Shown piece after piece: positions 4,199-48,038 of a DNA stretch of 48,038 bases. The notes under the pieces were generated by a model. That model did no database searches and was not told the origin of the DNA. It was given only the letters and a program-made list of their open reading frames with translations. Each line of letters begins with the position of its first letter. Position 1 is the stretch's first letter. Source of the stretch: a virus (lineage: Duplodnaviria > Heunggongvirae > Uroviricota > Caudoviricetes); the IMG/VR virus record IMGVR_UViG_3300011840_000036, positions 1 through 48,038 of that record. The stretch is one strand, 5' to 3'. The translations under genes were made by a program, and so were the position numbers.

Positions 4199-4244
4199 AA
4201 TTATCTCCTTAATAAATTTGTCGCATTAAGAAAATTCCAGAAAA

Positions 4245-18414: not shown

Positions 18415-18441
18415 AACCGCCGCTCCAGGCGGTTTTTTTTA
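18415..18441 (+). terminator. Rho-independent terminator
   Basis: AACCGCC-gctcca-GGCGGTT stem followed by a run of 8 T. Confidence 0.65.
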
Positions 18442-31156: not shown

Positions 31157-32655
31157 CGGTATCGTTCAGCAATATCCCGTCAAATCTCCGTGTGCCACTG
31201 TTCTATGTTGAAGTGGACAACTCAATGGCGAACAGCGCCACGGAGACGCAGCGCACCCTGCTGATTGGTCAGATGACGGCTGCGGGAACGGCCACGGCAG
31301 GGACGGCATACCGCTGTTCATCGGCCTCCATGGCTGCCGGGCTGTGCGGGGAAGGCTCCATGCTGCATACCATGCTGATGGCCTACCTTAAAAATGACAG
31401 CTACGGAGAGACCTGGCTGCTGCCGCTGGCAGATGATGACAGCAGCATGACGACGGCCACAGGCAGTATATCTGTTGACAGTGTGCCGACGGCATCCGGC
31501 GTTATTTACCTGTACATCGCAGGCACCCGCGTGCGCCTGACGGTGAAGCCAGCGTACACGCGGGCAGAGATTGCCAGTCTGCTGGCAGACAGAATCAACG
31601 CCACCTCCGGGCTGCCGGTGACGGCCTCCGTGCCCCGTGATGGCACGACCGTTGAGCTTACGGCCAGAAATGCCGGTGAGACGGGAAACACCATTGATAT
31701 CCGGCTGAACTATCTCGGGTCATCCGGCGGCGAGTCCACCCCGGACGGCCTGACGCTGACCATCACGGCGATGAGTGGCGGGGAGGGTGCGCCGGACCTT
31801 GCGGATGCGCTCGCCTCTCTGGGCGACCGCACGTTTGATTTCATTGTCCTGGCGTATTCCGACACCACATCGCTCAACGACATGAAGGATTTTCTGTCGG
31901 ATGACGAAGGTCGCTGGGCGTGGGACAAACAAATTTACGGCCATGCCTTCACGGCGGTAAACGGCAGCTATGGCGAGCTGGCAGACAAGGGAGAGCGCCG
32001 CAACGACCAGCACATGACACTCTGGGGAGTGTATGACGGTCCGAACACCTCATATGACTATGCCGCCGCGATGGTGGGGGCGCTGGCGCAGTCGGTCCGC
32101 AACGATCCGGCGAGACCCACCCAGACGCTGCCGGTATCCGGTGTGCTGGCCCCGCCGCTGGCAAGCCGTTTCACCCTGACGGAGCGGAACACGCTTCTCT
32201 ACAGCGGTATCTCAACCTTCACGGTGTCGGCCGACGATACGGTGACGCTTGAGAATACCATCACCACGTACCAGACCAACCGATACGGTGCGACAGACGA
32301 CAGCTACCTGCAGATCGAGACGATGTACACGCTGATGTATGTATGCCGCGACATGCGCACACAGGTGACCTCGAAGTTTGGACGGATGAAGCTGGCAGAT
32401 GACGACGCGAATATTCCGGCAGGGGCTGCGATAGCCACACCTGCGATTATTCGTGCTGAGCTGATCGCCCGGTTCCGGACGCTGGCGAGCAACGGCTACG
32501 TGCAGAATGCGGATGCGTTTGCGGAGCAACTGGTGGTTGAGCGTGACAGTGACAACCCGAACCGCGTGAACGTGGTGTGGCCGGGCCGCCTGATGAACCA
32601 GTTACGCATCTTTGCGGTGCTGAACCAGTTCAGTCTGAACAGCCGCAGCGATTAA
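31153..32655 (+). CDS. Contractile tail sheath protein (Mu gpL-like)
   Basis: 500-aa ORF followed by tube, chaperone and tape-measure genes in canonical myovirus order. Confidence 0.8.
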   Translation: MTVSFSNIPSNLRVPLFYVEVDNSMANSATETQRTLLIGQMTAAGTATAGTAYRCSSASMAAGLCGEGSMLHTMLMAYLKNDSYGETWLLPLADDDSSMTTATGSISVDSVPTASGVIYLYIAGTRVRLTVKPAYTRAEIASLLADRINATSGLPVTASVPRDGTTVELTARNAGETGNTIDIRLNYLGSSGGESTPDGLTLTITAMSGGEGAPDLADALASLGDRTFDFIVLAYSDTTSLNDMKDFLSDDEGRWAWDKQIYGHAFTAVNGSYGELADKGERRNDQHMTLWGVYDGPNTSYDYAAAMVGALAQSVRNDPARPTQTLPVSGVLAPPLASRFTLTERNTLLYSGISTFTVSADDTVTLENTITTYQTNRYGATDDSYLQIETMYTLMYVCRDMRTQVTSKFGRMKLADDDANIPAGAAIATPAIIRAELIARFRTLASNGYVQNADAFAEQLVVERDSDNPNRVNVVWPGRLMNQLRIFAVLNQFSLNSRSD

Positions 32656-32694
32656 CCATGATGCCGCCTGCGGGCGGCTTTTTTACGGGAGACG

Positions 32695-33060
32695 ATGATG
32701 AGTAAGAACGCGTTAGCGGGCACCTGTACCGTGACGATTGACGGCGTGTCGGTCAATGTGGCCGGAACGTTCAGATATTCCGTGGGTGAAATCGAGCGTG
32801 AAACGCTCACGGGGATGAGCGGCATACATGGCTTTAAGGAGTCGTACAAAGCGCCGTTTATCGAGATGACGGTGCGTGATTCCGGCTCACTGTCACTGAA
32901 GGATTTTGCGGCATATACGGATGTGACGGTGGCGGCCTATCTGGTGAACGGCAAGACCATTCTCGGTCAGAATATGTGGCTGACTGGCCGGATTGAGACA
33001 GACAACAACGATGCAACCTTTACGGCCCGTTTTGAGGGGCGGGAAGTGACGGAGAGCTGA
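32695..33060 (+). CDS. Tail tube protein (Mu gpM-like)
   Basis: 121-aa ORF directly after the sheath gene. Confidence 0.75.
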   Translation: MMSKNALAGTCTVTIDGVSVNVAGTFRYSVGEIERETLTGMSGIHGFKESYKAPFIEMTVRDSGSLSLKDFAAYTDVTVAAYLVNGKTILGQNMWLTGRIETDNNDATFTARFEGREVTES

Positions 33061-33062
33061 CA

Positions 33063-33341
33063 ATGAATGAGAAACAGACCGAAGAACTGGTGGTGACGCT
33101 GAAACGTCCGGTGAAGGATCCGGATACCAGGACCGAGTTCCGTGAGCTGCGACTGAAAGAGCCGGTGCTGTTCCAGGCGGAGGACTTTCACCGCAATACC
33201 GCCTCACTGGGCGCAATGGCGGCCATGCGTGAGCTGATTGCGGCAGTGGCGGGCGTGCCGTCTGCCCCGCTGAAATTCATGGCGGTGTCCGATTACAAAA
33301 AGTGTGAGCGGTTCCTGACGGGTTTTTTCCTGGAGGCCTGA
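33063..33341 (+). CDS. Tail assembly chaperone (short product)
   Basis: 92-aa ORF between tube and tape-measure genes, ending just after a T_TTT_TTC slippery heptamer. Confidence 0.75.
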   Translation: MNEKQTEELVVTLKRPVKDPDTRTEFRELRLKEPVLFQAEDFHRNTASLGAMAAMRELIAAVAGVPSAPLKFMAVSDYKKCERFLTGFFLEA

Positions 33342-33487
33342 GCCAGTGGCAGTCGAGGGCGGCTGAACTGACGTGGTTCTTTCACTGGTCCCCGCGCGAG
33401 GCGTGGGGGCTGACGTCAGGGGAAATTCTCTGGTGGTCGTCACAGGCAGAGCGGATCAACAGGCTGAGGAGTGGCGATGGCGGGTAA
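33063..33487 (+). CDS. Tail assembly chaperone, predicted -1 frameshift-extended product
   Basis: Heptamer T_TTT_TTC at 33323-33329 in the zero frame; the -1 frame continues ...PGGLSQWQSRAAELTWFFHWSPREAWGLTSGEILWWSSQAERINRLRSGDGG to a stop at about 33487, overlapping the tape-measure start. Confidence 0.6.
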
Positions 33488-35435
33488 TGCTTTTGTTTTT
33501 GAGCTGAATGCAAAGGGTAACGCGGATGCGCTTTTACTGAGAGCCTCAGAGGCTGCAGGACTGCTGGCAGGTAACGCAGAGCAGGCGGCGGCCAGCGTGT
33601 CAGGTCTGTCTGAGGAGCTGGGTGAAGTAAATGACACGTCCCTGAACGGGGCATCCGGTGCGGCGGATGCGCTGGGCGGGAAGATAACGCAGATCCACGA
33701 TTCGGTTACGCTACTGATGAACGCGCTGCTGGCCACAGACAGGGCGGGTAACAGGGCGCTGGGAAGGGAGAGTCAGGAGAATGCGGACAGGATGTCCGGA
33801 TATTTTGAACAGCTGTCCCGGCTGGGGAAGGACACGTCACAGCATTTCGGGGATATTGTGCCGCCGCTGCGCAATGTCGGGGCACTGTCATCAGAGCTGT
33901 TCAGTGCGCTGGGGCGCGGAGGTCTTGCGGGGCTTGCGGTCGCTGGCGGTGGCATGGCGGTGAAGGCGGTCGTCAGTAATCTTTATGATGCCTCGAAAGC
34001 GGCATACAGCCTGGATGTGAACGCAAGGAACGCCGGAATGCGCGTGAGTGCGTTCAGCCGCTTTGCCGGGGTGTTCCGTCTGATGGGCCTGTCGGCAGAT
34101 CAGGCACAGGCGGAGACCGGTGCACTGTTCACGACACTGAACGATGCGCTGAACACCCGTTCACCGGAGGTCACGGGCATTCTTAACCAGTTTGGTGTGA
34201 AGCTGGCGGAGAACAGCGACCACACGGTGAACCTGGAAAAGAGCACGCAGAACCTGATTGATGCCTTCGGGCGACTGAACAGTTCGTCGCAGAAGGTGGT
34301 GGCAGACGCGCTGGGGCTGTCGGATGCACAACTGGCGCTGCTGCGGGGAACGAAAAACCTGAATGCGGCGCTGGCGGAGTCCGATCGTCTGGGGCTGTCG
34401 ATGCCGGACAGTCTGAATGCGAAGCTGGTTCAGGCGAACAGCAACCTGAACCGTCTGTCAGCCGCGTGGGATGGTTTCACCGGCAGGATGAAGGCGAAGG
34501 TACTGGGCAGTGATGCTGTCACCGCCTCCGTGGACTGGGCGACCGATGTCCTGACCGGTCAGCGCAGCAGTCAGCAGAAAACGGGGGACCGTCTGTCAGA
34601 GCTGCGCGGTTATCTGTATGCCCATCCGGAGCAACTGAAATCACTGACGTCCCGGCAAAGATACAATCTCGATAACAATATCGCGACATCAGATCTCCTG
34701 GAGATGCACACGCGTCTGTCCGGTCAGCGGTCCGACAGACTGAATGCGCTTACCACGATGCTGAATGACGATCTGTCGAAAGTTATGGTGTCTCCGGCCC
34801 TGTCACAGATCACGTCACCACAAAAAAACGGTGCCGGTGGTCGTGATATCACCCCTGAACTGCGGGCGCATTTTGCGGCACTGGAGAAGCAGTACAACCT
34901 GCCGGAAAACACGCTGTACGGTCTGGCCATGACGGAGTCGTCCGGGCGGGCGGATGCTGTCGGGCCGCTCACCCGTTACGGCACGGCAAAGGGGATGTTT
35001 CAGTTCATTGACCCGACGGCCCGGGAGTATGGCCTTTCCGGTATGGATGTATTCAACCCTTACCGGGCCTCGGAGGCAGCCGCCAGAAAACTGGCGGGGC
35101 TGATGGCGCAGTATGGTGGTGACATGCAGCGCGCCTTTCAGGCGTACAACTGGGGCGAAGGCAATATGAGCGCCTGGCTTCGCGGACAGAAGGGGATGCC
35201 GCAGGAGACACAGACCTACGCGCCGAAGGTGTTCAGGCACATGTCACAGGTATCCGGCGGCAGCATCATCATGCCGCAGTCCGGCAGTTCAGGGACTGAC
35301 GTGCGGGATGAAATCAGTCGCGGTTTCAGCGAAAACAAAATCCGGCTGGACATTAACGTCACCAACACCGCCACGGGGCAGACAACCCGACGGACGGTGA
35401 AGGGGGGCGCGGTGGTCACGGCGATGGATGTGTGA
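33471..35435 (+). CDS. Tail tape measure protein with C-terminal lytic transglycosylase (SLT)-like domain
   Basis: 654-aa ORF after the chaperone pair; C-terminal ...TESSGRADAVGPL...GMFQFIDPTAREYG...AYNWGEGN resembles SLT-domain motifs. Confidence 0.8.
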   Translation: MAMAGNAFVFELNAKGNADALLLRASEAAGLLAGNAEQAAASVSGLSEELGEVNDTSLNGASGAADALGGKITQIHDSVTLLMNALLATDRAGNRALGRESQENADRMSGYFEQLSRLGKDTSQHFGDIVPPLRNVGALSSELFSALGRGGLAGLAVAGGGMAVKAVVSNLYDASKAAYSLDVNARNAGMRVSAFSRFAGVFRLMGLSADQAQAETGALFTTLNDALNTRSPEVTGILNQFGVKLAENSDHTVNLEKSTQNLIDAFGRLNSSSQKVVADALGLSDAQLALLRGTKNLNAALAESDRLGLSMPDSLNAKLVQANSNLNRLSAAWDGFTGRMKAKVLGSDAVTASVDWATDVLTGQRSSQQKTGDRLSELRGYLYAHPEQLKSLTSRQRYNLDNNIATSDLLEMHTRLSGQRSDRLNALTTMLNDDLSKVMVSPALSQITSPQKNGAGGRDITPELRAHFAALEKQYNLPENTLYGLAMTESSGRADAVGPLTRYGTAKGMFQFIDPTAREYGLSGMDVFNPYRASEAAARKLAGLMAQYGGDMQRAFQAYNWGEGNMSAWLRGQKGMPQETQTYAPKVFRHMSQVSGGSIIMPQSGSSGTDVRDEISRGFSENKIRLDINVTNTATGQTTRRTVKGGAVVTAMDV

Positions 35436-35445
35436 GGAGCAGAAG

Positions 35446-36852
35446 ATGGGCATTATCACAGACGCGGTGTCATCCGCCCTGGGGCTGTCTTCCTCCGGCG
35501 GGTGGGAGTGGCAGTCGCATATTCACCAGGCGTCATTTTGTGGCGTGCCGTTTGGCGTGATTGCCGGAGAGGGGGTATATGGTCGCCGGGTGGCGGTGCA
35601 TGAATACCCGTACCGCGATACGGTCTGGGTGGAAGACCTGGGGCGCAGCGCCCGGAAGTTCACACTGCGCGGGTTCCTGATACAGGACAGTCTGGTGTAC
35701 AGCGCGGGGGATGTGTTCAGTCAGCGGGATGCCCTGGTGGCGGCCTGTGAAACATCCGGCGGAGGTCTGCTGGTCCATCCGACGCTGGGTGAGATGACGG
35801 TGTATGTCCCGGACGGAGGTCTGCGTATTGAAGAGGGCGTGGAGTCCGGGCGTGTGTTTTCGTTCACGCTGACCGTCATTGAGTCAGGGGAAAAAGCGTT
35901 TTCACTGGTGACGGGGACAACCTCCACGTCATCGGAGACGTGGTATCAGACGCTGACCACAACGGCCACCGTGACGCTGGCGGCGATTACCGGTGAGATG
36001 AACAGTGTCACCGGGGCGGTAAAAACGATAAAGAGCACGGTGAGCGCGTGGAAGACGATATTTTCGCGGGCGGTGACGTCGGTGACCAGCATGACCAGCA
36101 CGGTGTCATCCCTGTATTCGCCTGACAGTTACGGGCGTTACTGTCGGGGCAGTGACACGCCGTCGGGCAGCACGGCCTCGTCGCTTGCAACGTGGCTTGC
36201 CACCACGGATGCGGATGATGACAGTATCCTGGAAACCATTCAGGCCTGCTCCGTGCAGGACCGGTCGGCGGCGGAGTCGGCGACAGCGGTGCTGGAGGAT
36301 ATCACATCCGTGTCCGGTGCCGTGTCCGCGATACAGGCGGTCATTATCACTCTGGCGGAGGCCACGGGCAGCGACACGGAGAAAATCCGCGTCATGGCTG
36401 AGATTGCGTCGGCGGAAGACGGGACGTATTACGAAGGGGAGGCGGCAAATGCCATCTCTGCGGCGGTGCAGGCCCTTATCCGCACACTGGGGGCCGGAGC
36501 GATGCTGTGGCGGCTGATGCAGTATTCCCCCCGTGGTCACGACGACGCGGTGTTGGTGATGCGGAAGGCCCGCACGGTGACGGAAACCGTCCTGCTGTTA
36601 CTGGCTGACCGTACGGATGACGACAGTTATGACGCGCTGAATGCGCAGTACACGCAGTTTGTCACCCACTGGCAGACGAATTATCTGTCACAACAGGACG
36701 TGATGAAGGTGACCAGCCGCTCACCGCAGCCGTCGCTGGCGCTGGCAAACCGGCTGTATCAGGACGCCTCGCGTGCGGACGAACTGGTACAGGCGGTCTC
36801 TCCCGTCCATCCGGCGTTCATGCCGCTTTCCTTCACAGCGAGAAACACATGA
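35446..36852 (+). CDS. Mu gpN-like DNA circularisation protein
   Basis: Start at MGIITDAVSS... with GAGGAG RBS (ORF track starts at 35428); position after the tape measure matches Mu N. Confidence 0.7.
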   Translation: MGIITDAVSSALGLSSSGGWEWQSHIHQASFCGVPFGVIAGEGVYGRRVAVHEYPYRDTVWVEDLGRSARKFTLRGFLIQDSLVYSAGDVFSQRDALVAACETSGGGLLVHPTLGEMTVYVPDGGLRIEEGVESGRVFSFTLTVIESGEKAFSLVTGTTSTSSETWYQTLTTTATVTLAAITGEMNSVTGAVKTIKSTVSAWKTIFSRAVTSVTSMTSTVSSLYSPDSYGRYCRGSDTPSGSTASSLATWLATTDADDDSILETIQACSVQDRSAAESATAVLEDITSVSGAVSAIQAVIITLAEATGSDTEKIRVMAEIASAEDGTYYEGEAANAISAAVQALIRTLGAGAMLWRLMQYSPRGHDDAVLVMRKARTVTETVLLLLADRTDDDSYDALNAQYTQFVTHWQTNYLSQQDVMKVTSRSPQPSLALANRLYQDASRADELVQAVSPVHPAFMPLSFTARNT

Positions 36853-37937
36853 GTACAACCACAGATGACACCCTGACGCTGAAGGTGAACAACACCGTCA
36901 TGTCGGGATGGAGCCATATCCGGGTGACGCGGGGTATTGAGCGCCTGCCGTCGGATTTTGAGCTTTCGCTGACGGACTGGTATCCGCAGGAGGGCTTTCA
37001 GCTGGCCCCGCCGGGGAGCAGCTGCACGATATCCATTGGTGATGACCGGGTGATGACCGGCTATGTCGACCAGTGGGTGAACACCCTGACGCCGCAGTCG
37101 CATGATATCCGGGTGACGGGCAGGGGAATGTGCCAGGACCTTGTGGACTGCGCCGCCTGGTGGGAGAACAACATGATAAAGGGCGGCGATGCGCTGGCCA
37201 TCATCAGAAAACTGGCGTCGGTGTACGGCATCACGGTGACGACAGACATCGACAGTTTCACCACGGTGCCGGATTTTGTCATCAACTGGGGGGAGTCGTC
37301 GCAGCAAATCATTGACCGCATCTGCCGGTATGAGGGGCTGCTGTATTACGACCTGCCGGATGGCAGCCTGTTCCTGACGCGGGCAGGAACGGCGTCGGCA
37401 GCCAGTGGGGTGACGCAGGGGGTGAACCTGCAGAAGGCGGAGTACACACGAAGCATGAATGAACGGTTTTCGGAATACACCGGGCTGTCGGTGTCGGTGA
37501 ACAGCCTCAGCGAGCTGTCACCGGCATCCGGTTATGACAGCGTGCTGCTGGCGACGGCCCGTGACCCGGAAGCCGCCGGTATGCGCACCCGTCGTCACGT
37601 GACGATAGTGGAGAGCACGCTGATGACGACGGGGTGTGCACAGCAGGCGGTGAACTGGGAAATGAACCGGCGCTACGGGCGTTCCATGGCAGTGAACGTC
37701 ACGGTGGACAGCTGGCGTGACAGTGCGGGAACGCTGTGGCAGCCCAACACCTTTGTGCCGGTGAGCATACCGGCACTGGGGGCGGACAGTCTGAACTGGC
37801 TGGTCTCTGAGGTGACGTTCAGCCGTGACGATGAGACGGGGACCACGGCATCGCTGGTCCTGATGCCGCCGGAGGCGTTCAGCGTGCAGCCGTACCGTTT
37901 TTATTCCGGCGTGGCCGGAAGGGATGTGTCGTCATGA
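36849..37937 (+). CDS. Baseplate hub protein (Mu gpP/gp44-like)
   Basis: 362-aa ORF in Mu gene order after the N-like gene. Confidence 0.7.
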   Translation: MSTTTDDTLTLKVNNTVMSGWSHIRVTRGIERLPSDFELSLTDWYPQEGFQLAPPGSSCTISIGDDRVMTGYVDQWVNTLTPQSHDIRVTGRGMCQDLVDCAAWWENNMIKGGDALAIIRKLASVYGITVTTDIDSFTTVPDFVINWGESSQQIIDRICRYEGLLYYDLPDGSLFLTRAGTASAASGVTQGVNLQKAEYTRSMNERFSEYTGLSVSVNSLSELSPASGYDSVLLATARDPEAAGMRTRRHVTIVESTLMTTGCAQQAVNWEMNRRYGRSMAVNVTVDSWRDSAGTLWQPNTFVPVSIPALGADSLNWLVSEVTFSRDDETGTTASLVLMPPEAFSVQPYRFYSGVAGRDVSS

Positions 37938-38515
37938 ATCCTGTACAGGTGCTTTTTCGCCGTCTGGTGTCACTGCTGAGCGTGGGGCGCGTGACGGCGG
38001 GTGATGACAGCGGTGTGGTGCAGACCGTGCAGGTGCAGAGTCCGTCAGAGGTACGCAGCGACACGCCGGTTCTTCAGCAGTTTGGTTTTTCCTCGGTGCT
38101 GCCCGACGGAACGGATGTGGTGGTGATGAGTCTTGCCGGTAACCGCAGCAGCGCGGTGGTGGTGGCGTCCGGCCATCAGTCATACCGGATTAACGGTCTG
38201 AGCAGCGGTGAGGTGGTGGTCTACAACCAGTGGGGGCAGTTCGTCCGTCTGGGTGAGGACGGGATTGTGGTGGAGGCCTCCGGGCAGCCGGTGACGGTGA
38301 ACAGGGCCACCACGCTGAAGGTAACGGCGACGGACGGGGTCACCCTTGAAACGCCGTCGCTGAAGGTGACGGGGGATATCACGGACAACTGTGAAACCAA
38401 CAGCACCACGCTGAAGGCGCTGCGGGAGGCATACAACATCCACACCCACCCGGTCAGCGGTGTGGAGAGCGGCGGCAGCACGGTGACAAGTCAGGCAACC
38501 ACGGGGACGGTGTGA
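37934..38515 (+). CDS. Baseplate spike/assembly protein V-like (Mu gp45-like)
   Basis: 193-aa ORF with an OB-fold-like N-terminal region, following the hub gene. Confidence 0.7.
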   Translation: MNPVQVLFRRLVSLLSVGRVTAGDDSGVVQTVQVQSPSEVRSDTPVLQQFGFSSVLPDGTDVVVMSLAGNRSSAVVVASGHQSYRINGLSSGEVVVYNQWGQFVRLGEDGIVVEASGQPVTVNRATTLKVTATDGVTLETPSLKVTGDITDNCETNSTTLKALREAYNIHTHPVSGVESGGSTVTSQATTGTV

Positions 38516-38516
38516 G

Positions 38517-38954
38517 ATGAGCGATATCACGCTTTTGTACGATGAAGAGGCGCTGCGGTGCGACTGGTCCGTGGGCACAGGTGACATTGTCTGCGGAAAT
38601 GATTTGCAGACGGCCATTCTCATCAGCCTGTTCACGGACAGGCTGGCGGATGCATCAGATGAGACGGATGACGGCAACCGGCGCGGATGGTGGGGTGACC
38701 TTGAGCAGGACTACCGGGTTGGTTCACGGCTGTGGCTGCTGCGCAGGCAGAAACTGACCACACAGGTGGCGCTTAAGGCGGAGGCATACGCCCGGGAGGC
38801 GCTGCAGTGGCTGAAGGATGACGGCGTGGTGGCCTCGCTGGATGTGGAGGCGTGGATAGTGCCGCCGGACCGGCTGTACATGACCATTGCATACCAGCGT
38901 CCGGATGCGGACACGACGGAATACCAGAAATTTTACCGGGTGTGGGAGGTATGA
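38517..38954 (+). CDS. Baseplate protein (Mu gp46-like)
   Basis: 145-aa ORF between the spike and J-like genes. Confidence 0.65.
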   Translation: MSDITLLYDEEALRCDWSVGTGDIVCGNDLQTAILISLFTDRLADASDETDDGNRRGWWGDLEQDYRVGSRLWLLRRQKLTTQVALKAEAYAREALQWLKDDGVVASLDVEAWIVPPDRLYMTIAYQRPDADTTEYQKFYRVWEV

Positions 38955-38955
38955 G

Positions 38956-40110
38956 ATGCCGTTTGAGCGTCCCGGATTAAGCGAACTGCGTGAGAAAAGC
39001 CGGTCGTATGTGACCGGCCAGCTGGATGAGGCCGGTGCCCTGCTGCGGTTTTCCACGCTGGGGATTCTGGCGGATGCCGTGGCGGGCATGACGCATCTGC
39101 ATTACGGCTATCTTGACTGGATAGCGCAGCAGTGCACACCGGCCACGGCCACCGGGGAATATCTGGCGGCGTGGGGGGCACTGAAGGGCATCATCCGCAG
39201 GGCAGCAGTGGCGGCCACCTGTGAGGCGGTGCGCTTTACGGGCACACCGGGCAGCACGGTGAGCGCGGAGGCGGTGCTGAACCGTGCGGACGGGTATCAG
39301 TACACGCTGGATGAGGATGTGAGCATTGACAGTGACGGCAGCGGCACGGGGAGCATCACGGCGGTGCTGCCGGACCCGACGGATGACCGCAGCGGCGGTG
39401 GTGATGACGGTAACGCGGATGCCGGAACGACCCTGACACCGGATGTCACCTGGTCAGGCATCGACTCAACGGTGACGATGGTGAGTGCCGCCACCGGCGG
39501 CAGTGACACTGAGGATGAGGAAGCGTACCGCCAGCGCGTGCTGTATGCGTACCAGAACCCGCCTCAGGGCGGGGCGGCGGCGGACTATGTGCAGTGGGCG
39601 CTGGAAGTTCCCGGTGTGACCCGTGCATGGTGTGTGAACCGTGCACTGGGGTTCGGGACGGTGGGTGTTTACATCATGACGGACGGAGATGATGAAGACA
39701 ACGCCGGGGGCTTTCCTGACGGCACGGACGGGGTGGCAACGGATGAGGACTGGACGGACCGGAAAGCCACGGGGGTGCAGCTGACGGTGGCGGACCATAT
39801 CCGGCAGTACCAGCCGGTCACGGCGGTGGTGTACGTGATGTCGCCGGTGGCCAGAAGCATTGATTTTGAGATACAGGGGCTGAGCAGTGCCACGGCGGCA
39901 CTGAAGGCACGGGTGGAGAGTGCCATCAGCGAGGTGCTGTACAACGTGGGTGAACCGGACGGCAGCGGGGTGATTCACCTTTCAGACCTCTGGTACGCCA
40001 TTGCGGACACAGAGGGGACAGACGGGTTCATTCTGGTGTCTCCTGACAGCAACATCACGCTGTCGCAGGGAGAGCTGCCGGTGACCGGAACGATAACCTG
40101 GGCAACATGA
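38956..40110 (+). CDS. Baseplate J-like protein (Mu gp47-like)
   Basis: Start at MPFERPGLSELREKS... (ORF track begins upstream at a TTG, 38887); about 384 aa. Confidence 0.75.
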   Translation: MPFERPGLSELREKSRSYVTGQLDEAGALLRFSTLGILADAVAGMTHLHYGYLDWIAQQCTPATATGEYLAAWGALKGIIRRAAVAATCEAVRFTGTPGSTVSAEAVLNRADGYQYTLDEDVSIDSDGSGTGSITAVLPDPTDDRSGGGDDGNADAGTTLTPDVTWSGIDSTVTMVSAATGGSDTEDEEAYRQRVLYAYQNPPQGGAAADYVQWALEVPGVTRAWCVNRALGFGTVGVYIMTDGDDEDNAGGFPDGTDGVATDEDWTDRKATGVQLTVADHIRQYQPVTAVVYVMSPVARSIDFEIQGLSSATAALKARVESAISEVLYNVGEPDGSGVIHLSDLWYAIADTEGTDGFILVSPDSNITLSQGELPVTGTITWAT

Positions 40111-43100
40111 GGAACAGGATGAGTCGTTTTTCACATGATGACTACACGCGCGCGATGCTGAACCTTCTGCCGTCAGGGATTGCCTGGAGCCGTCTGCCTG
40201 ACAGCGTGCAGCACCGGCTGATACGCGGACTGGCACAGGCGTACCGGCAGAGTGACGCTGATGCGTGCGCACTGATAACGGGCGCCTTCCCGGAAACGGC
40301 GGATGCGCTCACTGATGAGTGGTATGCCTCGCTGGGGCTGAATGATGAATGCGGGACGCAGGCATCCACCACAGACCCGGCGCAGGCCAGAAAATTCATT
40401 CTGGCGAAACTGCTGTCGACGGGCGGGCAGAGTGTGGCGTATTTCACGGAGCTTGCGGCGACGATGGGGTACAGCATCAGTATCCGTGAGTACCGCACAC
40501 CACTGTGCGGATTTTCGTGGAGCGGGCATCTGCTGAGTGACGACAACCGGTTTAACTGGACCGTGGTGGTGGCCCCGCCGGGGGATGAGGTGACCACCTC
40601 ACGGGCGTACCTGGAGTGCCTGTTTCGTCGTTATGCCCCGGCGCATACGCTGGTGACGTTTGAGTGGCAGTTATCGTACAGCGCCGCCCTGAGCATTGCA
40701 TGGGACAACATCACACACGTTCTTTCCGGCGCGCTCACGGCAGATGAGGGGGTGGTGGTGTCGGGGGTGACGGTGAATGTTGTCATCAAATCCGCGTCGG
40801 GACAGCGGTATGTGGCGACAGTGACAACGGACAGTGAAGGGCACTGGTCGTATGAAATGGAGGATGATGATTTTGCGAACGGCTGGTATTCGGCGTATGC
40901 AGAGGCTGCCGTTGACATGCCGGATGACGTGACAGTACCGGTACGCAGTGAGGTGATAAATCTGCGGAAAACCGTGAGTGTGCGCGGTGTGAGCCTGTCG
41001 GTCACTGAGCTGGAGCTTGACAATGATGAGTGTGCTGCGGTTGCGGTGAGTGTCTGGCCGGAGAATGCTGAAGACCGGAGCTGGACTGTGACGGTCAGCG
41101 ATGAAAGCGTGGTGTCGGTGGTGGTCAACAGCGACAGTTCACTGACCGTGTGCGGGATGAGCGAAGGTGATGCGGTGGTGACGGTGACGACAAATGACGG
41201 CGGACACACGGCAACATTACAGGTCAGCTGTTACGTGCCGGCGGTTTTTGATTCGGTCTGTGCTTCATCGTCAAAAGCGCTGGTCAGTGTTGCTGATGTG
41301 GTGAACTGCCGTGTCAGCTTCGGCGACGGATATGTTGCTGCGGACCAGCTTGAAACGACAACCAGCGGGGGCTGGGCGAATATCCTGTTACCCGACTCAC
41401 TGGCAGACGGGGAGCTCCGGACAATCAGGGTGAGAACGGCGGGGAGTGTCAGGTTCAGGGTGTACGGGTACAGCAGCACGGCTTACAACGACCTGGTCAG
41501 ACTACGTCAACTTCCGGCGGGACAAAAATCCTGTAGCTACCTTGCGAGTAATACCCCCAGTCTGGTGAGTATTGACAGCGGCGCATTCCGTTTTTGCAAA
41601 AACGCTACGGCATTCGACAGTGCATTTTACCGGTGTAAAGGACTGACTGCGATACCTCCGGGGCTGTTTGCTGAGTGCGCCAGCGCCACGACGTTCTATC
41701 AGGCATTTTACGAATGTACGGGACTCAATGCAGTCGGTGACAGCGCATTTGCCGGGTGCACCGGTGCCACAACGTTTAAGGATACCTTTCGTGGTTGTAC
41801 CGGACTGAGAACGGTGGGTGACAGCGTGTTTGCCGGGTGCACCGGTGCCACAACGTTTGAGGATACCTTTTATGGTTGTACCGGACTGAGTGCCGTGGGG
41901 GACCATGTGTTTGCCGGGTGCACCAGTGCGACAACATTTTACAGGGTCTTTTATAACTGCAGGGAACTGAGCACGGTGGGTAACAGCGTGTTTGCCGGAT
42001 GTGCCAGTGCCACAACGTTTTTGCAGGCCTTTTATGGCTGCCAGGCGCTGACATCATTAGGTCAGGGGATATTTGCAGACTGCACCGGGGTGACGACATT
42101 CCTCCAGGCTTTTTATAACTGCAGGGGACTGACGGCATTGCCGGAAGGGATGTTTGACAGCTGCACTGCCGTGACCACGTTCAGTAATGCCTTTTATGGC
42201 TGCACGGCTCTGACAGCAATACCGGAAGGGTTGTTTGACAGTTGTACCGGGGTGACGACATTCAACCGGACGTTTTATGGCTGCGCGGCCCTGACAGCGA
42301 TACCGGCAAAATTGTTCGCAAACTGCACAGAGGTTGCGACGTTTGAGGGGGTGTTTTCGGGATGCTCGGGGCTGGTAACGATACCGGCAGGGTTATTTGA
42401 AAAACTCACCAGTGTCACGACGTTTGACAGCGCGTTTTACGGGTGCAGGGCACTGACAACAGTGGGTGACAGAGTATTTGCTGGTTGTACAGGTACCACA
42501 ACATTCGCAAGCGTATTTGAAGGTTGCACCGGACTGGTCACGATACCGGCTGACGTGTTTGCTGGTTGTTCGGGTGTCAGATCGTTTTACCGGTCGTTTT
42601 TGGGGTGTACAGGACTGGCAATGGTCCCCCCGGAATTGTTTGCAGATTGTACCGGAGCCACGACGTTCTATACGACATTTTACCGTTGTACCCGTCTGTC
42701 GGAAGTTCCTGCAGAGTTGTTTTCCGGTTGTACCGGAGCAAAGTCTTTCTATAAGACTTTTGGCGAATGTACCGGGTTGTCGGAGGTACCGGCCAGATTA
42801 TTTGCAGACTGTACCGGTGCCACGACGTTTGAGGGGGTGTTTTCGGGATGCCGGGGGCTGACAACGATACCGGCAGGGTTGTTCGCTGACAGCGCCAGTG
42901 TCACCACTTTCTTTGAGGCGTTTTACGAATGCACGGGCCTGACCGCGATACCGTCAGGATTGTTTGCAGACTGTGTAAGTGTGACAACCTTCAGGCGGAC
43001 CTTTTACGGTTGTTCCGGGCTGAGAACGCTGGGCGACAATGTGTTTGCCGGTTGTGTCAGTGCCACAACGTTTGAAGACACCTTTTATGGTTGTACCGGG

Positions 43101-44450
43101 CTGACAACGGTGGGAGACGGCGTGTTTGCCGGATGTACCAGTGTTACGACGTTCTACCGGGCGTTTTACGGCTGTACGGGGCTGACATCCATAGGAGAGG
43201 GAGTGTTTGCAGGTTGTACTGCTGTGACGACGTTCAGTAGTGCTTTTTATAACTGCAGGGGACTGACGGCATTGCCGGAAGGGATGTTTGACAGCTGCAC
43301 TGCCGTGACCACGTTCAGTAGTGCTTTTTATGGCTGTACGGCTCTGACAGCGATACCGGCAGGGCTGTTTGACAACTGCGTCTCTGTGACGACGTTCAGT
43401 TATGCCTTTGGCGACTGTGTGAGACTGAAGGCGCTGCCTGCCGGGCTGTTTGAAAACTGTAGTCGTGTGACGACCTTCTTCCGGACGTTTTATGGCTGCA
43501 CGGAACTGGTAACGGTGGGGGAAAGGGCGTTTGCAGGCTGCAGCAGTGCATCGACGTTCGAAGGCACATTTTACGACTGCACGAAGCTGACAACGCTGGG
43601 AGACAGTGTATTTGACGGATGTACAGGTGTGACGTCGTTCTATCAGACTTTCAGTGGCTGCACGAAGCTGACAGCAATACCTGCAGGGCTGTTTGACAGC
43701 AGCCACGGCGTGACAACCTTCTACCGGACATTTTACCGGTGTGCCGCCCTGACGACGGTGCCTGAGGCGGTATTTGACCGTTGTGTCAGCGCAGGGTCTT
43801 TCCAGGATACGTTTTTCGGTTGTACGGGGCTGACGATGTTACCTGCAGGATTGTTTGATAACTGTACCCGTGTGACGTCGTTTTACCGGACGTTCCGGGG
43901 CTGTACAGGTCTGAAGACACTGCCGGAAGGGTTGTTTGACAACAACACTGCTGTGACCACGTTCAGTCAGACTTTTTACGGCTGTACGGGGCTGGCGGTG
44001 CTGCCTGCCGGGCTGTTTGAAAACTGTACCGGAGTGACATCGTTCTATCAGACCTTTGATGGTTGCACGGGGCTGATGACGATACCGGACGGACTGTTTG
44101 CAGGACTCGCCAGCGTCACAACATTCAGAGAGACCTTTAACGGTTGTACGGGGCTGACCACTGTGGGCGACGGCTTGTTTGCGGGGTGCGTCAGTGCGAC
44201 GACGTTTGAAGGCACCTTTTACGGTTGCACAGGGCTGGAGAGTGATGTGAATGACATCCTCCCGGCGGAAGAGTACCCGCAAATAACCAGTGTGTACCGT
44301 TGTTTTTACAACTGCCGGTCATTGCAGGGAAGCGGATGTGCGCTCATTGAGAAGTTGCCTGGCGTGACGAGTTACGCGGATGCGTTTTATAACTGCGTAT
44401 CCCTGAGCGATTTCAGGACCTTGTCTGAGCGTTATCCAGTCTGGGTTTAA
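40107..44450 (+). CDS. Giant chimeric tail protein: N-terminal Mu gp48/YmfQ-like baseplate domain, Ig-like (Big_2-type) domains, then about 33 cysteine-rich 27-residue BspA-type leucine-rich repeats
   Basis: Single uninterrupted 1447-aa ORF; start overlaps the J-like stop; N-terminal ~190 aa resemble YmfQ/gp48; central segment VSVWPENAEDRSWTVTVSDESVVSVVVNSDSSLTVCGMSEGDAVVTVTT is Big_2-like; the remainder repeats the FxGCTGLTxIPxGLFxxCTxVTTFxxxF unit. Confidence 0.8.
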   Translation: MRNRMSRFSHDDYTRAMLNLLPSGIAWSRLPDSVQHRLIRGLAQAYRQSDADACALITGAFPETADALTDEWYASLGLNDECGTQASTTDPAQARKFILAKLLSTGGQSVAYFTELAATMGYSISIREYRTPLCGFSWSGHLLSDDNRFNWTVVVAPPGDEVTTSRAYLECLFRRYAPAHTLVTFEWQLSYSAALSIAWDNITHVLSGALTADEGVVVSGVTVNVVIKSASGQRYVATVTTDSEGHWSYEMEDDDFANGWYSAYAEAAVDMPDDVTVPVRSEVINLRKTVSVRGVSLSVTELELDNDECAAVAVSVWPENAEDRSWTVTVSDESVVSVVVNSDSSLTVCGMSEGDAVVTVTTNDGGHTATLQVSCYVPAVFDSVCASSSKALVSVADVVNCRVSFGDGYVAADQLETTTSGGWANILLPDSLADGELRTIRVRTAGSVRFRVYGYSSTAYNDLVRLRQLPAGQKSCSYLASNTPSLVSIDSGAFRFCKNATAFDSAFYRCKGLTAIPPGLFAECASATTFYQAFYECTGLNAVGDSAFAGCTGATTFKDTFRGCTGLRTVGDSVFAGCTGATTFEDTFYGCTGLSAVGDHVFAGCTSATTFYRVFYNCRELSTVGNSVFAGCASATTFLQAFYGCQALTSLGQGIFADCTGVTTFLQAFYNCRGLTALPEGMFDSCTAVTTFSNAFYGCTALTAIPEGLFDSCTGVTTFNRTFYGCAALTAIPAKLFANCTEVATFEGVFSGCSGLVTIPAGLFEKLTSVTTFDSAFYGCRALTTVGDRVFAGCTGTTTFASVFEGCTGLVTIPADVFAGCSGVRSFYRSFLGCTGLAMVPPELFADCTGATTFYTTFYRCTRLSEVPAELFSGCTGAKSFYKTFGECTGLSEVPARLFADCTGATTFEGVFSGCRGLTTIPAGLFADSASVTTFFEAFYECTGLTAIPSGLFADCVSVTTFRRTFYGCSGLRTLGDNVFAGCVSATTFEDTFYGCTGLTTVGDGVFAGCTSVTTFYRAFYGCTGLTSIGEGVFAGCTAVTTFSSAFYNCRGLTALPEGMFDSCTAVTTFSSAFYGCTALTAIPAGLFDNCVSVTTFSYAFGDCVRLKALPAGLFENCSRVTTFFRTFYGCTELVTVGERAFAGCSSASTFEGTFYDCTKLTTLGDSVFDGCTGVTSFYQTFSGCTKLTAIPAGLFDSSHGVTTFYRTFYRCAALTTVPEAVFDRCVSAGSFQDTFFGCTGLTMLPAGLFDNCTRVTSFYRTFRGCTGLKTLPEGLFDNNTAVTTFSQTFYGCTGLAVLPAGLFENCTGVTSFYQTFDGCTGLMTIPDGLFAGLASVTTFRETFNGCTGLTTVGDGLFAGCVSATTFEGTFYGCTGLESDVNDILPAEEYPQITSVYRCFYNCRSLQGSGCALIEKLPGVTSYADAFYNCVSLSDFRTLSERYPVWV
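41580..44420 (+). repeat. 81-bp-periodic coding repeat array with long near-identical copies (about 80 nt perfect identity at about 42109..42186 and 43243..43320)
   Basis: Direct comparison of the two copies shows an identical stretch followed by about 90 percent identity over a further ~60 nt; spacing 1134 bp (14 x 81). Confidence 0.75.
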
Positions 44451-44496
44451 TGACAGGAGGATCCCGCCGCTCCGGTGGCGGGGTAAGGAGATATGC

Positions 44497-45288
44497 GTGA
44501 AGAAAATATCTGATATCACACCGTATGTTGATGAAAACGACGAGTTTACTGACGGCGCGCCTGCCACAGGGCTGAAGCCAACGCCGTTGCTGGCGGCGTG
44601 GTTTAACCTCATTCAGCGGGAGCTGGTGAAGGTGGTGGAGGGGGCCGGGCTGACGCTGGATCCGACAGATGACACACAGCTCTGGCAGGCGTTATCGAAA
44701 TACTTTGCCTCACAGGAGAATGTGAACACTGCCATGGGTGCTCTGGGTACGATGGCCGGTCAGAACAGTGATGCGGTGGATATCACCGGCGGCGCGATAA
44801 CAGGGACATCCCTCACTGGCGATCTGACGGGCAATGCGGATACAGCCACAAAACTGAAAACGGGCCGGACAATCCAGGTAAATCTTGGCAGTACGGGTGC
44901 AGTTACTTTTGATGGCAGTGCGAATGTCACGCCGGGCGTGACCGGCACATTGCCGGTGAGCAGTGGTGGTACCGGGGCCACCACTGCGTCAGGGGCCAGA
45001 ACAAATCTGGGGCTGGGAGATGTGGCAACCCAGAATCTGAGTACGCTCGATGCCCGTTACCTGCTGACGACGGGCGGTGTGTCGGCGGTAAGGCTGGGGA
45101 GTGCCAGTTCGTATATCCCTCCCGGTAACGAAGTATCGTGGACCAGTAATCTCTCCTCCGGAAATGTGCTCACAGGGATTATTGTTCAGGAAACGGGATC
45201 AAACTCGGCAGACAATATTGGTGGGGTTTATTACCGCCAGTTGCAGTATTGCATAAACGGCACCTGGTATTCAGCTGAATCGCTATAG
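44497..45288 (+). CDS. Short tail fibre protein with P2 gpH-like C-terminal tip
   Basis: 263-aa ORF, GTG start with AAGGAG RBS; C-terminal ...QYCINGTWYSAESL resembles the P2 gpH C-terminus as recalled; Gly/Thr-rich segments; followed by a tail fibre assembly gene. Confidence 0.75.
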   Translation: MKKISDITPYVDENDEFTDGAPATGLKPTPLLAAWFNLIQRELVKVVEGAGLTLDPTDDTQLWQALSKYFASQENVNTAMGALGTMAGQNSDAVDITGGAITGTSLTGDLTGNADTATKLKTGRTIQVNLGSTGAVTFDGSANVTPGVTGTLPVSSGGTGATTASGARTNLGLGDVATQNLSTLDARYLLTTGGVSAVRLGSASSYIPPGNEVSWTSNLSSGNVLTGIIVQETGSNSADNIGGVYYRQLQYCINGTWYSAESL

Positions 45289-45297
45289 GATGAAAAT

Positions 45298-45837
45298 ATG
45301 CAGAATATAAAAAATTTCACGAAATACACCCCGGACAACCCGCCAGTGGAAGGGGCGGGATATCTCATCAGTGAGGATGGTCAGGACTGGTATGAATGCC
45401 AGACGCAGTTTGCAGAGGATACATACAAAGTTGCGTATGACAGTGACGGTATCGTGCGCAGTATTTCGACCGATGTGTCGGCACTTTGTCCTGTCAGTCT
45501 GAGTGTTGCTGAGGTTGAGTCGCTGCCGGACGGTGCGGATATCGACGGCAACTGGGTGTTTGACGGGGAGAGTGTGGTTGCGCGGACGCTGACGGCAGCG
45601 GAGTGGCAGGCAAGGGCGGAATCGCAACGAAGCGCGCTGATATCGGATGCGAAGGCGACAATCAGCCTCTGGCAGTCAGAGCTTCTGCTGGGCACCATCA
45701 GTGATGATGACAAAGAGAGTCTGACGGAATGGCTGGCTTACATAAAGGCGCTTCAGGCGCTGGATTTAAGTGATGTGACGGATGAGTCGAGTTACAACGC
45801 GACAGTCTGGCCGGATGAGCCGGGAGTCACCGCATAA
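45298..45837 (+). CDS. Tail fibre assembly protein (Tfa, P2 gpG/Mu U-like)
   Basis: 179-aa ORF immediately after the fibre gene; N-terminus MQNIKNFTKYTPDNPP typical of Tfa proteins. Confidence 0.75.
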   Translation: MQNIKNFTKYTPDNPPVEGAGYLISEDGQDWYECQTQFAEDTYKVAYDSDGIVRSISTDVSALCPVSLSVAEVESLPDGADIDGNWVFDGESVVARTLTAAEWQARAESQRSALISDAKATISLWQSELLLGTISDDDKESLTEWLAYIKALQALDLSDVTDESSYNATVWPDEPGVTA

Positions 45838-45907
45838 AGCCGCTGAGAAGCGTTTTTGCTTCAGTGAAACAAAATATTGGCTACTGTAGCATCGTGTTTA
45901 AAGAAAA

Positions 45908-45928
45908 ACCGGCATGGTTGATGCCGGT
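45908..45928 (-). terminator. Hairpin terminator serving the minus-strand hydrolase gene
   Basis: ACCGGCAT-ggttg-ATGCCGGT 8-bp stem; on the minus strand it is followed by TTTTTCTT. Confidence 0.55.
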
Positions 45929-46056
45929 TATATCAAAGCACGATATAAACTAAGGATAAAAGGATTTCAGGAACAACAATCTAACCAAAAGGTATATTTG
46001 AATCAAGTATGACCTGTGTATTGTTATTTATTTATCGTTTCGTGATTTTTTATGGC

Positions 46057-46857
46057 TTATTTATAAGAGTTAGATTTACTCTCAGTGCGTTTTTGTAACC
46101 AGTTTTTTAATATTGTATTTACTTCTTTTGCATGAGTGACATTCAATGCATGATTGGCGTCAGGTATAACTGCAAGCTCAGAGTGCGGGATCATTTTGTG
46201 CATTTCAAGAGCTTTCTCCAGTGGTATTCCTGTATCACCGGATCCATGAAGAATCAGGGTGGGCGTTTTGATCGTATGAACTTTACCTGAAATATCGTCT
46301 CGCTCCAGCATTGCATTCATAGCTAGTTTGATGTTTTCAGGTTCATGACGTAGCCATACTTGTCTCCATTTCGCTGCTTCAGAGATATTCTTTCCAAAGA
46401 AAACGGGTAATAATGAGGATATTATCTCTTCTTTTATTAGTGAGTTATGCCATCCATTGCATAGTTCCATATAACTGGATGCAATTTCTGGCGGGTCCTG
46501 CTCGACCTGAGTTGCCATAAGAATTAGTCCTGACAAACGCTCTGGATGTGACAGGGCAAATCGTAATGATATATACCCTCCCATCGACATCCCCCCTAAA
46601 ATAAACTTATCCAGTTGTAGTGAGTCTGCGACGTTTACAATGTCATCAACGATGTCATAGAGCGAGAATGGCTCAGTTTTTTCGGAGGTGGCATCGAAAC
46701 CCCGAACATTAATGCAAACAACTCTATGTTTTTCTTTTAGTTCGTCAAACTGGTATTTGAACATTTCATTATTCATGAAAAATCCATGAACGAAAATGAT
46801 AGGGGGATTGTTTTTATTTGTTTCAGTGTATCCAGAGTCAGTAAACGTAAAATTCAT
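46057..46857 (-). CDS. Alpha/beta-fold hydrolase (serine esterase/lipase-type), AT-rich cargo gene
   Basis: 266-aa ORF with nucleophile elbow GGMSMGG and a plausible Ser-Asp-His triad (HGSGDTG, ANHALN); markedly lower GC than the flanking tail genes. Confidence 0.8.
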   Translation of the reverse strand: MNFTFTDSGYTETNKNNPPIIFVHGFFMNNEMFKYQFDELKEKHRVVCINVRGFDATSEKTEPFSLYDIVDDIVNVADSLQLDKFILGGMSMGGYISLRFALSHPERLSGLILMATQVEQDPPEIASSYMELCNGWHNSLIKEEIISSLLPVFFGKNISEAAKWRQVWLRHEPENIKLAMNAMLERDDISGKVHTIKTPTLILHGSGDTGIPLEKALEMHKMIPHSELAVIPDANHALNVTHAKEVNTILKNWLQKRTESKSNSYK

Positions 46858-47039
46858 GAGTACTCCGTTATTTAGACAGTTATGTTGTACATTTGACTAA
46901 TGATAGCGAAGAGCTTTATTGACCTGCTGAACAGAAATCCACTTGTCAAAAACCTTCGAAGTTTATCTACCAAGATGGAGATAATCTTGTCAAGTATTCG
47001 TTAGGGCATAAAAGCATGGGTTTAATAGTAAATCTAAGA

Positions 47040-47289
47040 CTTTTACGTGCGACAACACGCCTCATTCGTGTTGTGTTTTGTCGCAGTTTGTTCTTAAATT
47101 CTCGCAAATCATTTCCCTCTAATTTGAAGTAGTGCCTCCCACAAACAAACCGCTCAGAGTTACGGGTGTAATTGACTCTGATGTTGTTGATCTTGGCACC
47201 TAAAGCTGATCCAAAAGTTCGGTGATGATAACAGGAATCTGGTTATGGATGAGCGGGGATATGGTTTCAACAGAGATTTGAGTTGTCAT
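47040..47289 (-). pseudogene. Disrupted fragment of an antirepressor N-terminal domain
   Basis: Minus strand reads MTTQISVETISPLIHNQIPVIITELLDQL-stop, then a homologous segment (...NIRVNYTRNSERFVCGRHYFKLEGNDLREFKNKL) in another frame; DNA about 80 percent identical to the 5' end of the intact gene at 47960..48038. Confidence 0.55.
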
Positions 47290-47474
47290 AATGACGTCCT
47301 CTAGTGGTTTCTAAACTTAAACTATCACCACCGTCAGGTTCCAATCATCGGGTGGTGAGACGCACAGGGTTGGAACTACCGGGAAACCGACCGACGAGCT
47401 TTTCAGCTCCCCCATGCGCCCCACAATAATTCATATGTGCGCGTGCATACGAGAAAAAACACTTGTTATATCTG

Positions 47475-48038
47475 CTAAAGCTGCATCAGCCTTTCCACCA
47501 GTTGTTCTTTACGGGCAACGAGCCAGCCGTGTTGCTCCAGATAAAATTTAAACCGTTCCAGAGTGCATACCATCGCATCGGCGGGGACTTTTTCTGTGAA
47601 CTCTACCTGACCGTGTTTATCGAAGTGGATCAGTAATGCGCATCCATCATTTACGGTGGGGGTGTTTTGTGTTGCTGGTGGCTGTTTCTGGCTGAAATAA
47701 CAGTCTTCCAGTTTTTCGAACACTTCCCACGCCTGATCTGTTTCGAGCATTTTGGCGTGGCGGGCTGCGCCACGTTCTGTCCATAGGATGAGGGAGCGGG
47801 CTTTGGGAGATATGGGGTTTTGTGACTTACTTAAAGTAAGTCGCAAATTTTTTAATTCTTCACCCGATGCTTTAAAAAAGTGCTTTCCTTCGACAAAACG
47901 CTCTTTGTTTCTGGTGAAGTTAACCTGGATATTCAGAATTTCGGTGCCATAAAGCTGCGCCAAAAGTTCGGTGGTAATAACAGGGATCTGGTTATGGGTG
48001 ATCGGGGTGAGAGTTTCAACAGAGATTTGAGTGGCCAT
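47475..48038 (-). CDS. Phage antirepressor (AntA/ORF6N-type N-terminal domain; C-terminal domain shared with the Rha protein at 4245..4799)
   Basis: 187-aa ORF whose ATG sits at the last three bases of the window; C-terminal ...HFDKHGQVEFTEKVPADAMVCTLERFKFYLEQHGW parallels ...HFDERGNIKFTETVPDGALVCTLDTFRFYLEKQGW in the Rha protein. Confidence 0.75.
   Translation of the reverse strand: MATQISVETLTPITHNQIPVITTELLAQLYGTEILNIQVNFTRNKERFVEGKHFFKASGEELKNLRLTLSKSQNPISPKARSLILWTERGAARHAKMLETDQAWEVFEKLEDCYFSQKQPPATQNTPTVNDGCALLIHFDKHGQVEFTEKVPADAMVCTLERFKFYLEQHGWLVARKEQLVERLMQL

Follow-up and report, generated by a model that had tools for sequence, protein, structure and literature searches.

A mobile AT-rich cassette beside prophage tail fibre genes of Escherichia coli encodes a predicted cytoplasmic alpha/beta hydrolase

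In an E. coli prophage, the gene for an alpha/beta-fold serine hydrolase that lies after the last tail gene and before attR was found to follow the textbook pattern of a phage moron, in a cassette that has been swapped between unrelated prophages. The gene was studied in a stretch of 48,038 nucleotides of viral DNA from IMG/VR (hereafter the window), the relevant features of which are collected in Table 1. Taking all the evidence together, we assign a probability of roughly 0.7 to the reading that the gene is a moron in a mobile, AT-rich cassette of about 1 kb and that its product is a soluble cytoplasmic hydrolase of esters or lactones, conferring a conditional benefit on the host.

Table 1. 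Features in and around the hydrolase cassette (positions in the window)
Feature	Position	Strand	Remarks
Tail fibre assembly gene (tfa), Caudo_TAP	45298..45837	plus	last structural gene
Eroded late-operon terminator after tfa	45840..45865	plus	left junction of the cargo region
Intrinsic terminator of the hydrolase gene	45907..45929 (45929->45907)	minus	9-bp stem, 5-nt loop, U-run
Hydrolase CDS	46057..46857	minus	266 aa, ATG start, intact alpha/beta-fold serine hydrolase; stop codon 46057-46059
Conserved mobile unit	46091..47075	minus	ORF minus its last ~11 codons, plus ~215 bp of 5' region; 83-88% identity to copies in other prophage types
Shine-Dalgarno GGAG	46863..46866	minus	5 nt before the hydrolase ATG; read from the sequence
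Operator-like inverted repeat TTATCT-N10-AGATAA	46963..46984		overlaps the spacer and -10 of the candidate promoter
Candidate sigma-70 promoter	46964..46993	minus	TTGACA (46993-46988), 18-nt spacer, TAGATA (46969-46964); inferred
Truncated, frameshifted ORF6N antirepressor copy	47088..47289	minus	interrupted at the edge of the hydrolase cassette
C4 antisense RNA, second copy	47348..47431	minus	58.4 bits; P1-type immI-like module, upstream on the hydrolase strand
Full-length ORF6N antirepressor gene	47475..48038	minus	upstream on the hydrolase strand

RESULTS

The hydrolase gene and its terminator

As the original prediction had proposed, the ORF map and the Pfam assignment of Caudo_TAP place the gene directly after the tail fibre assembly gene and in convergent orientation to the plus-strand tail genes. 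Its base composition is as deviant as had been claimed: the GC content of the CDS is 0.39 (GC3 0.36), versus 0.588 in the tail genes (31153-45837) and 0.528 in the whole window. The predicted terminator of its own was likewise confirmed. The hairpin, which begins 127 nt beyond the hydrolase stop codon, reads AACCGGCAU-CAACC-AUGCCGGUU and then UUUUCUUU, the GC-rich stem of 9 bp with its loop of 5 nt being followed on the minus strand by UUUUUCUUU. Its folding energy was -13.1 kcal/mol for the centroid (hairpin-only) structure and -14.7 for the MFE structure, with a z-score of -4.0 and none of 200 shuffled sequences as stable, and the terminator is conserved also in the prophage at the dusA site. 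The interval 45840-46860 thus comprises the gene, its 3' UTR and the terminator, with the promoter region (46858-47075) just outside. RefSeq already annotates the product generically as 'alpha/beta fold hydrolase'.

The terminator that closes the late operon after tfa is clean in relatives (GCCGCT-GAGA-AGCGG followed by T8), and the window copy is without parts of the stem and of the T-run. Given this erosion, late transcription may run antisense into the hydrolase gene.

The gene lies inside the prophage

Over the hydrolase region, prophages of E. coli C8 and ST2350 match the window at 99.9% identity. The C8 prophage (locus L007) begins, in order, with ompW, the integrase, early genes, lysis genes, head genes and a contractile tail with a Mu-like baseplate, and continues with a 1447-aa repeat protein, the tail fibre, tfa, the hydrolase, the ORF6N pseudogene, the full-length ORF6N gene, an ompW 3' fragment and yciE. 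The att duplication is formed by ompW 3' ends present as direct repeats of 87% identity (L007 429-556 and 49568-49695). The window corresponds to L007 600-49108 and is therefore wholly inside the prophage, with the hydrolase about 1.7 kb from attR. The claim that the gene is phage cargo is borne out by this mapping, the att copies lying beyond both window ends. That it is instead host chromosome flanking the prophage had a single argument in its favour, nearness to the window end; the same ompW duplication already refutes it, and the gene is found only beside phage tail genes at six chromosomal sites and is also present on IMG/VR viral contigs, so that the probability of a host flank is practically nil.

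Just inside attR lies a P1/P7-type immI-like module, all on the minus strand (L007 48418-48501, 49160-49244 and 49272-49361). Its elements come in the order a1b1 target/isrK-like RNA, C4 (77.6 bits), full ORF6N, second C4, truncated ORF6N and hydrolase. The C4-ant unit is duplicated in tandem, its second copy being cut by the hydrolase cassette. The PADLOC models matched the full-length ORF6N weakly to a candidate system, PDC-S05 (E 4e-8 to 2.5e-4).

The 1447-aa tail protein (40107-44450, plus strand), named 'leucine-rich repeat protein' by RefSeq, matches a baseplate wedge subunit (phrog_203) at its N-terminus. Then come an Ig-like domain and, after it, repeats of leucine-rich type that contain Cys, several dozen in tandem, each of 81 nt or 27 aa ('F..C...TTF...F.GCTGL..'); the protein is probably the receptor-binding protein. 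In the C8 copy, which is 99.9% identical, RefSeq further annotates tRNA-Thr and tRNA-Gly genes, dicB, hokD and a DNA methyltransferase within the prophage, at L007 19002-19155, 4778-4960 and 13355-13510, which correspond to about 18400-18560, 4180-4360 and 12755-12910 of the window.

A cassette shared by unrelated prophages

5,426 complete E. coli genomes were surveyed for the conserved unit 46091-47075, which was present in 29 (0.5%), always on the chromosome. Eight contexts were read, covering six integration sites, and in all eight the hydrolase directly follows tail fibre/tfa genes in convergent orientation. Prophages with a Mu-like baseplate carry the cassette at ompW (C8, E24377A) and dusA; lambda-like prophages (gpJ-lom-stf-tfa) carry it adjoining zinT in APEC O1, at the lambda att site ybhB/bioA in strain A25, and at icd in strains including FHI_NMBU_03; and a P2-like prophage carries it at prfC. 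In the lambdoid prophages of A25, FHI_NMBU_03 and APEC O1 the cassette occupies the space between stf/tfa and attR, and the comparison with the slot of the lambda b region made in the original prediction therefore stands. Seven IMG/VR viral contigs also carry the hydrolase, with only about 0.9-1.2 kb on one side in the fetched locus; this short one-sided flank, and ranges that reach the contig end, indicate that the gene lies near one end of these contigs.

The limits of the cassette were set by comparison of relatives. At the Rac site of strain 'numer 3' lies a prophage whose repeat protein, tail fibre and tfa genes are 98.5% identical to those of the window; it contains neither the hydrolase nor ORF6N, its tfa terminator being followed by unrelated DNA and then uspF. 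Homology of the window to 'numer 3' ends near 45865, just past the eroded late terminator, which gives the left junction. At the right junction, homology to the other cassette copies stops at about 47075, where the truncated ORF6N copy starts. The 3' flank with the terminator differs between cassette contexts. Absence from 'numer 3' together with presence in unrelated prophages is the distribution that had been anticipated for cargo. Other prophage types share about 900 bp more DNA upstream of the cassette, with a 40-aa ORF that RefSeq calls 'ferredoxin' (L003 9103-9225, L005 9095-9217, L006 9102-9224); it is absent from the window, which has the ORF6N pseudogene instead.

The gene resembles phage morons and lambda b-region cargo (lom and bor of lambda, cor of phi80/N15, or the effector loci that lambdoid prophages have behind their tail fibre genes) in its own terminator, its atypical GC content and its slot between the last tail gene and attR, and also in being present or absent among otherwise near-identical prophages while recurring in unrelated ones. 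It differs from them in that the product is a predicted cytoplasmic enzyme and not a membrane, exclusion or secreted protein.

This location raises the question of anti-phage defence or superinfection exclusion, in which the hydrolase would destroy a molecule needed by an incoming phage, or a signalling molecule. The cor gene of phi80/N15 and fun(Z) of P2 are exclusion genes in comparable positions after the tail fibre genes, and the hydrolase lies in a variable slot for accessory genes at the end of the prophage, adjoins an immunity-type C4/antirepressor module and keeps its link to tail fibre/tfa genes in eight of eight contexts over six integration sites. However, none of the 5027 models of PADLOC-DB 2.0 matched the hydrolase, even at E 0.1; it stands alone, without a partner gene, and the proteins nearest to it are ordinary esterases of small molecules. 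The linked tail fibres differ between contexts, which gives no sign of a receptor-specific logic, and literature searches found no paper tying a prophage alpha/beta hydrolase of this kind to defence. A role in defence is thus considered quite unlikely. In a paper on P. aeruginosa hotspots that was also consulted, an alpha/beta hydrolase serves only as a flanking marker, and it was set aside as unrelated.

Protein family, catalytic residues and predicted structure

The serine hydrolase assignment of the original prediction proved correct. The protein scored far above Pfam cutoffs for Abhydrolase_1 (E 2e-28; 100.1 bits, cutoff 25.8), Hydrolase_4 (E 2e-22; 80.4 bits, cutoff 27) and Abhydrolase_6 (67.5 bits, cutoff 26.3), and it has a nucleophile elbow GMSMG (within LGGMSMGGY) and a triad in the order Ser91, Asp208, His236, as the alpha/beta-hydrolase fold requires. 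An alignment of 26 homologous sequences showed eleven invariant columns (G53, G89, S91, G93, G94, L113, P199, L201, G205, D208 and H236) and a nearly invariant HG oxyanion motif at residues 24-25 (H24, G25).

An AlphaFold2 model of the protein (mean pLDDT 92.6, pTM 0.91) shows a canonical central sheet flanked by helices, with strands at residues 4-7, 20-23, 46-50, 85-90, 108-114, 200-205 and 226-231 and a four-helix cap (residues 123-184) inserted after strand 6; TM scores to many solved members of the fold were 0.8-0.87. The slot after the tail fibres holds effectors in EHEC lambdoid prophages. A reading of the protein as a type III secretion (T3SS) effector was rejected, its Ser/Thr/Asn-rich N-terminus being strand 1 of the fold in the model; to our knowledge, carrier strains such as E24377A and APEC O1 are without the LEE.

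No signal peptide or membrane segment was detected in the protein, which has no Lys or Arg in its first 10 residues, a hydrophilic N-terminus and a maximal 19-aa hydropathy of 1.15. This makes it unlikely that the enzyme works at the cell surface, for example as an O-antigen deacetylase. The suggestion in the original prediction of a lysogenic-conversion enzyme found no support in the analysis.

Nearest known enzymes and candidate function

The best match among solved structures is TtEst, an esterase of Thermogutta terrifontis (PDB 4uhc/4uhd/4uhe/4uhh), with a phmmer E of 3e-33 over residues 16-257, the next structure being at 3e-20; Foldseek superposed the two at an rmsd of 2.0 A (TM 0.86; 31% identity). 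TtEst, a cytoplasmic enzyme, hydrolyses C1-C3 esters (PMC4655241). Both proteins have the Ser-Asp-His order, an HGF oxyanion motif, a helical cap and no signal peptide. On the other hand, they share only 31% identity, and TtEst is encoded on a planctomycete chromosome and not in a phage. The next fold matches, at 20-25% identity, were the Pseudomonas aryl esterase PFE, a gut feruloyl esterase, PcaD, cofactor-free haloperoxidases and the AHL-degrading Est816.

On these grounds the hydrolase is most likely a cytoplasmic carboxylesterase or lactonase with a small soluble substrate, as predicted from its sequence and model. The original prediction had offered an esterase, a deacetylase or a lipase. 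The first of these, in the form of a short-chain esterase, is favoured by the nearest structures, which also make a lipase less likely than a short-chain esterase or lactonase; a true lipase and, as stated above, a surface deacetylase are unlikely.

In NCBIfam no enzyme family was reached at its cutoff, and all equivalog scores were far below. The top profile was that of the bifunctional PcaDC enol-lactonase (121.7 bits, cutoff 390), followed by PcaD enol-lactonase (TIGR02427; 104.6 bits, cutoff 255.85) and the BioH pimeloyl-ACP methyl ester esterase (TIGR01738; 88.1 bits, cutoff 206.95); further profiles below cutoff were those of short-chain PHA depolymerase, RutD, MenH and macrolide esterases. 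The protein resembles PcaD in an end-to-end profile match (residues 13-255 to profile positions 9-251) and in fold (PDB 2xua, TM 0.84), and differs from it in the sub-cutoff score, the 20% identity to 2xua and the absence of pca pathway neighbours.

It was considered whether the enzyme could be specifically an AHL or enol-lactone lactonase, degrading signalling or aromatic-pathway lactones for the lysogen. In its favour, the highest-ranking NCBIfam profiles are those of 3-oxoadipate enol-lactonases, with full-length alignments; both an enol-lactonase (2xua) and Est816 (5egn), which degrades AHL, appear among the fold matches; and two genes upstream of a 46% paralogue there is a gene with an 'SdiA-regulated' Pfam domain. 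Yet no profile score comes near its family cutoff, TtEst is closer in sequence (31% identity) than 2xua and 5egn (20-22%), no beta-ketoadipate pathway context exists here in E. coli, and the SdiA-domain neighbour is a hint at the level of a name. Such a dedicated lactonase appears unlikely, if somewhat less so than the other alternatives.

An antibiotic-inactivating macrolide esterase resembling EstT or EstX is more doubtful still and is regarded as very improbable. The matches to the macrolide esterase families (EstT, EstX, mle) were weak, with 45-71 bits against cutoffs of 420-600 bits, scores 6-10 times too low, and were no better than those to many unrelated alpha/beta hydrolases. A match to the EstT structure 11tu (E 1e-18) would fit the idea, as would the IncF plasmids that bear paralogues in poultry-associated E. 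coli and Salmonella, but these plasmid paralogues lie beside fimbrial and EAL genes and not in resistance regions.

Among phage protein families, the hydrolase matches PHROG 789 and 23613 ('esterase/lipase') at E 1e-29 and 4e-13; the match spans only positions 345-601 of a 637-position profile, which implies that those phage proteins are larger and multidomain. No close relative (>60% identity) was found in 50,697 deposited phage genomes, where the only matches, in mycobacteriophages and others, were of 23-30% identity, and the viral structures of BFVD gave only distant giant-virus hydrolases. Literature searches found no expression data or paper on this hydrolase gene; a paper on the APEC phage phiv142-3 was discarded, as it concerns a tail fibre ORF and a hypothetical ORF and not this hydrolase.

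The conserved 5' region

Upstream of the gene, the combination of TTGACA, an 18-nt spacer and TAGATA with an overlapping inverted repeat is read as a putative promoter with its operator. A consensus promoter scan did not call the candidate, which it passed over because the -10 element is weak. Across the block that contains the candidate promoter, each of the four other alleles matches the window at 93-95% identity. The inverted repeat has perfect 6-bp arms, is the single match to its pattern in the window (0.04 expected) and is conserved in all five alleles; readings of it as a Fur box or a DnaA box, checked by eye, were dropped as too weak.

Conservation extends over the 5' non-coding region (46858-47031), in which four of five 40-nt blocks have 91-96% mean pairwise identity and one 81%, as computed from a gapped alignment, an ungapped comparison being misleading owing to 1-nt indels. 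Blocks of the hydrolase CDS range from 75% to 98% identity, most of them at or below 93%, and the upstream region is thus equally or more conserved. An Rfam scan of 45700-47500 found no riboswitch or sRNA in this conserved region, the only results being the C4 RNA farther upstream and sub-threshold noise. The stretch from the upstream C4-ORF6N genes to the hydrolase showed no terminator on the minus strand, so that read-through from the C4-ORF6N operon is also possible.

Selection and decay

Comparison of five hydrolase alleles gave dS values of 0.22-0.74, dN values of 0.03-0.12 and dN/dS ratios of 0.12-0.20, by which the alleles are under purifying selection, and the triad is intact in all full-length alleles. 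In two of the five genomes with the window-type allele, E24377A and DS26-1, frameshifts split the gene.

These frameshifts, the rarity of the gene (0.5% of complete genomes) and the fact that its upstream neighbour is itself a pseudogene would agree with a functionless passenger, a relic carried along by recombination at the tail fibre genes and now decaying. Against this stand the low dN/dS ratios at dS up to 0.74, the preserved triad and the strongly conserved 5' region, and we regard a mere passenger as improbable. Both its rarity (29 of 5426) and the frameshifts in E24377A and DS26-1 indicate, for a functional gene, that any benefit to the host is conditional.

Relatives on plasmids and elsewhere

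The family falls into tiers: alleles in E. coli prophages at 70-94% identity, one E. coli paralogue at 52%, a group at 42-48%, and then sequences at 35% or less. The 52% paralogue (P0012) lies between genes for a periplasmic binding protein and an aldehyde dehydrogenase, with flanking IS elements. IncF plasmids of E. coli and Salmonella, many of them from poultry, carry paralogues of 44-47% identity. Three of these plasmids were read: in two the gene is downstream of a chaperone-usher fimbrial operon, and in two there are EAL-domain genes within a few kb. A 46% relative on metagenomic contigs has an EAL-domain gene directly downstream and belongs to a cluster with bundlin, DsbA and 'SdiA-regulated'-domain genes. 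The 44-47% paralogues (L008, L009, L010, L014-L016) recur beside adhesin loci (chaperone-usher fimbriae, bundlin-like pilin, K88) and also adjoin genes for EAL-domain c-di-GMP phosphodiesterases, on IncF plasmids and virulence-plasmid-like contigs.

The IncF paralogues and P0012 thus share with the prophage gene a compact subfamily and a location on mobile DNA, and differ from it in lying outside prophages and in having fimbrial/EAL or binding-protein/aldehyde dehydrogenase neighbours. These neighbourhoods are suggestive of host-associated lifestyles.

DISCUSSION

The favoured reading, a moron encoding a soluble ester or lactone hydrolase, can be put as follows. The ORF, a ribosome-binding site and a putative promoter/operator region make up a cassette of about 1 kb that is of foreign origin and has been exchanged by recombination among unrelated prophages; in the window it lies in an E. 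coli prophage integrated at ompW, after the last tail gene and before attR. In the lysogen, transcription of the gene may begin at the candidate promoter upstream of it or reach it by read-through from the C4-ant operon; from what is generally known of AT-rich foreign DNA, its expression would probably be damped by H-NS. The enzyme would attack a carboxylic ester or a lactone through an acyl-enzyme on Ser91, the oxyanion presumably being held by the backbone of the HG motif and of the residue after Ser91, and its substrate would most likely be a small soluble ester or lactone. The hydrolase would be dispensable for phage growth and, from general knowledge of such genes, could give the host a conditional metabolic or detoxifying benefit.

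It is also conceivable, if distinctly unlikely, that the cassette travels with tail fibre genes for a phage-related role, be it exclusion and defence or the degradation of a quorum signal that biases the choice between lysis and lysogeny. If true, this would amount to a single-gene, enzyme-only module of immunity or communication outside current defence catalogues.

The limits of the cassette are now defined (46091-47075) and include a 5' control region conserved at least as well as the CDS. Prophages of myovirus, lambda and P2 type at six att sites share this unit, a clean case of modular exchange beside tail fibre genes. What remains novel is the constant linkage to tail fibre genes and the operator-like repeat, and the gene would be of more interest if the enzyme affected phage infection or signalling. 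The subfamily is compact and confined to mobile DNA, namely prophages and IncF virulence-type plasmids of E. coli and Salmonella, and characterisation of one member would therefore annotate the whole small family.
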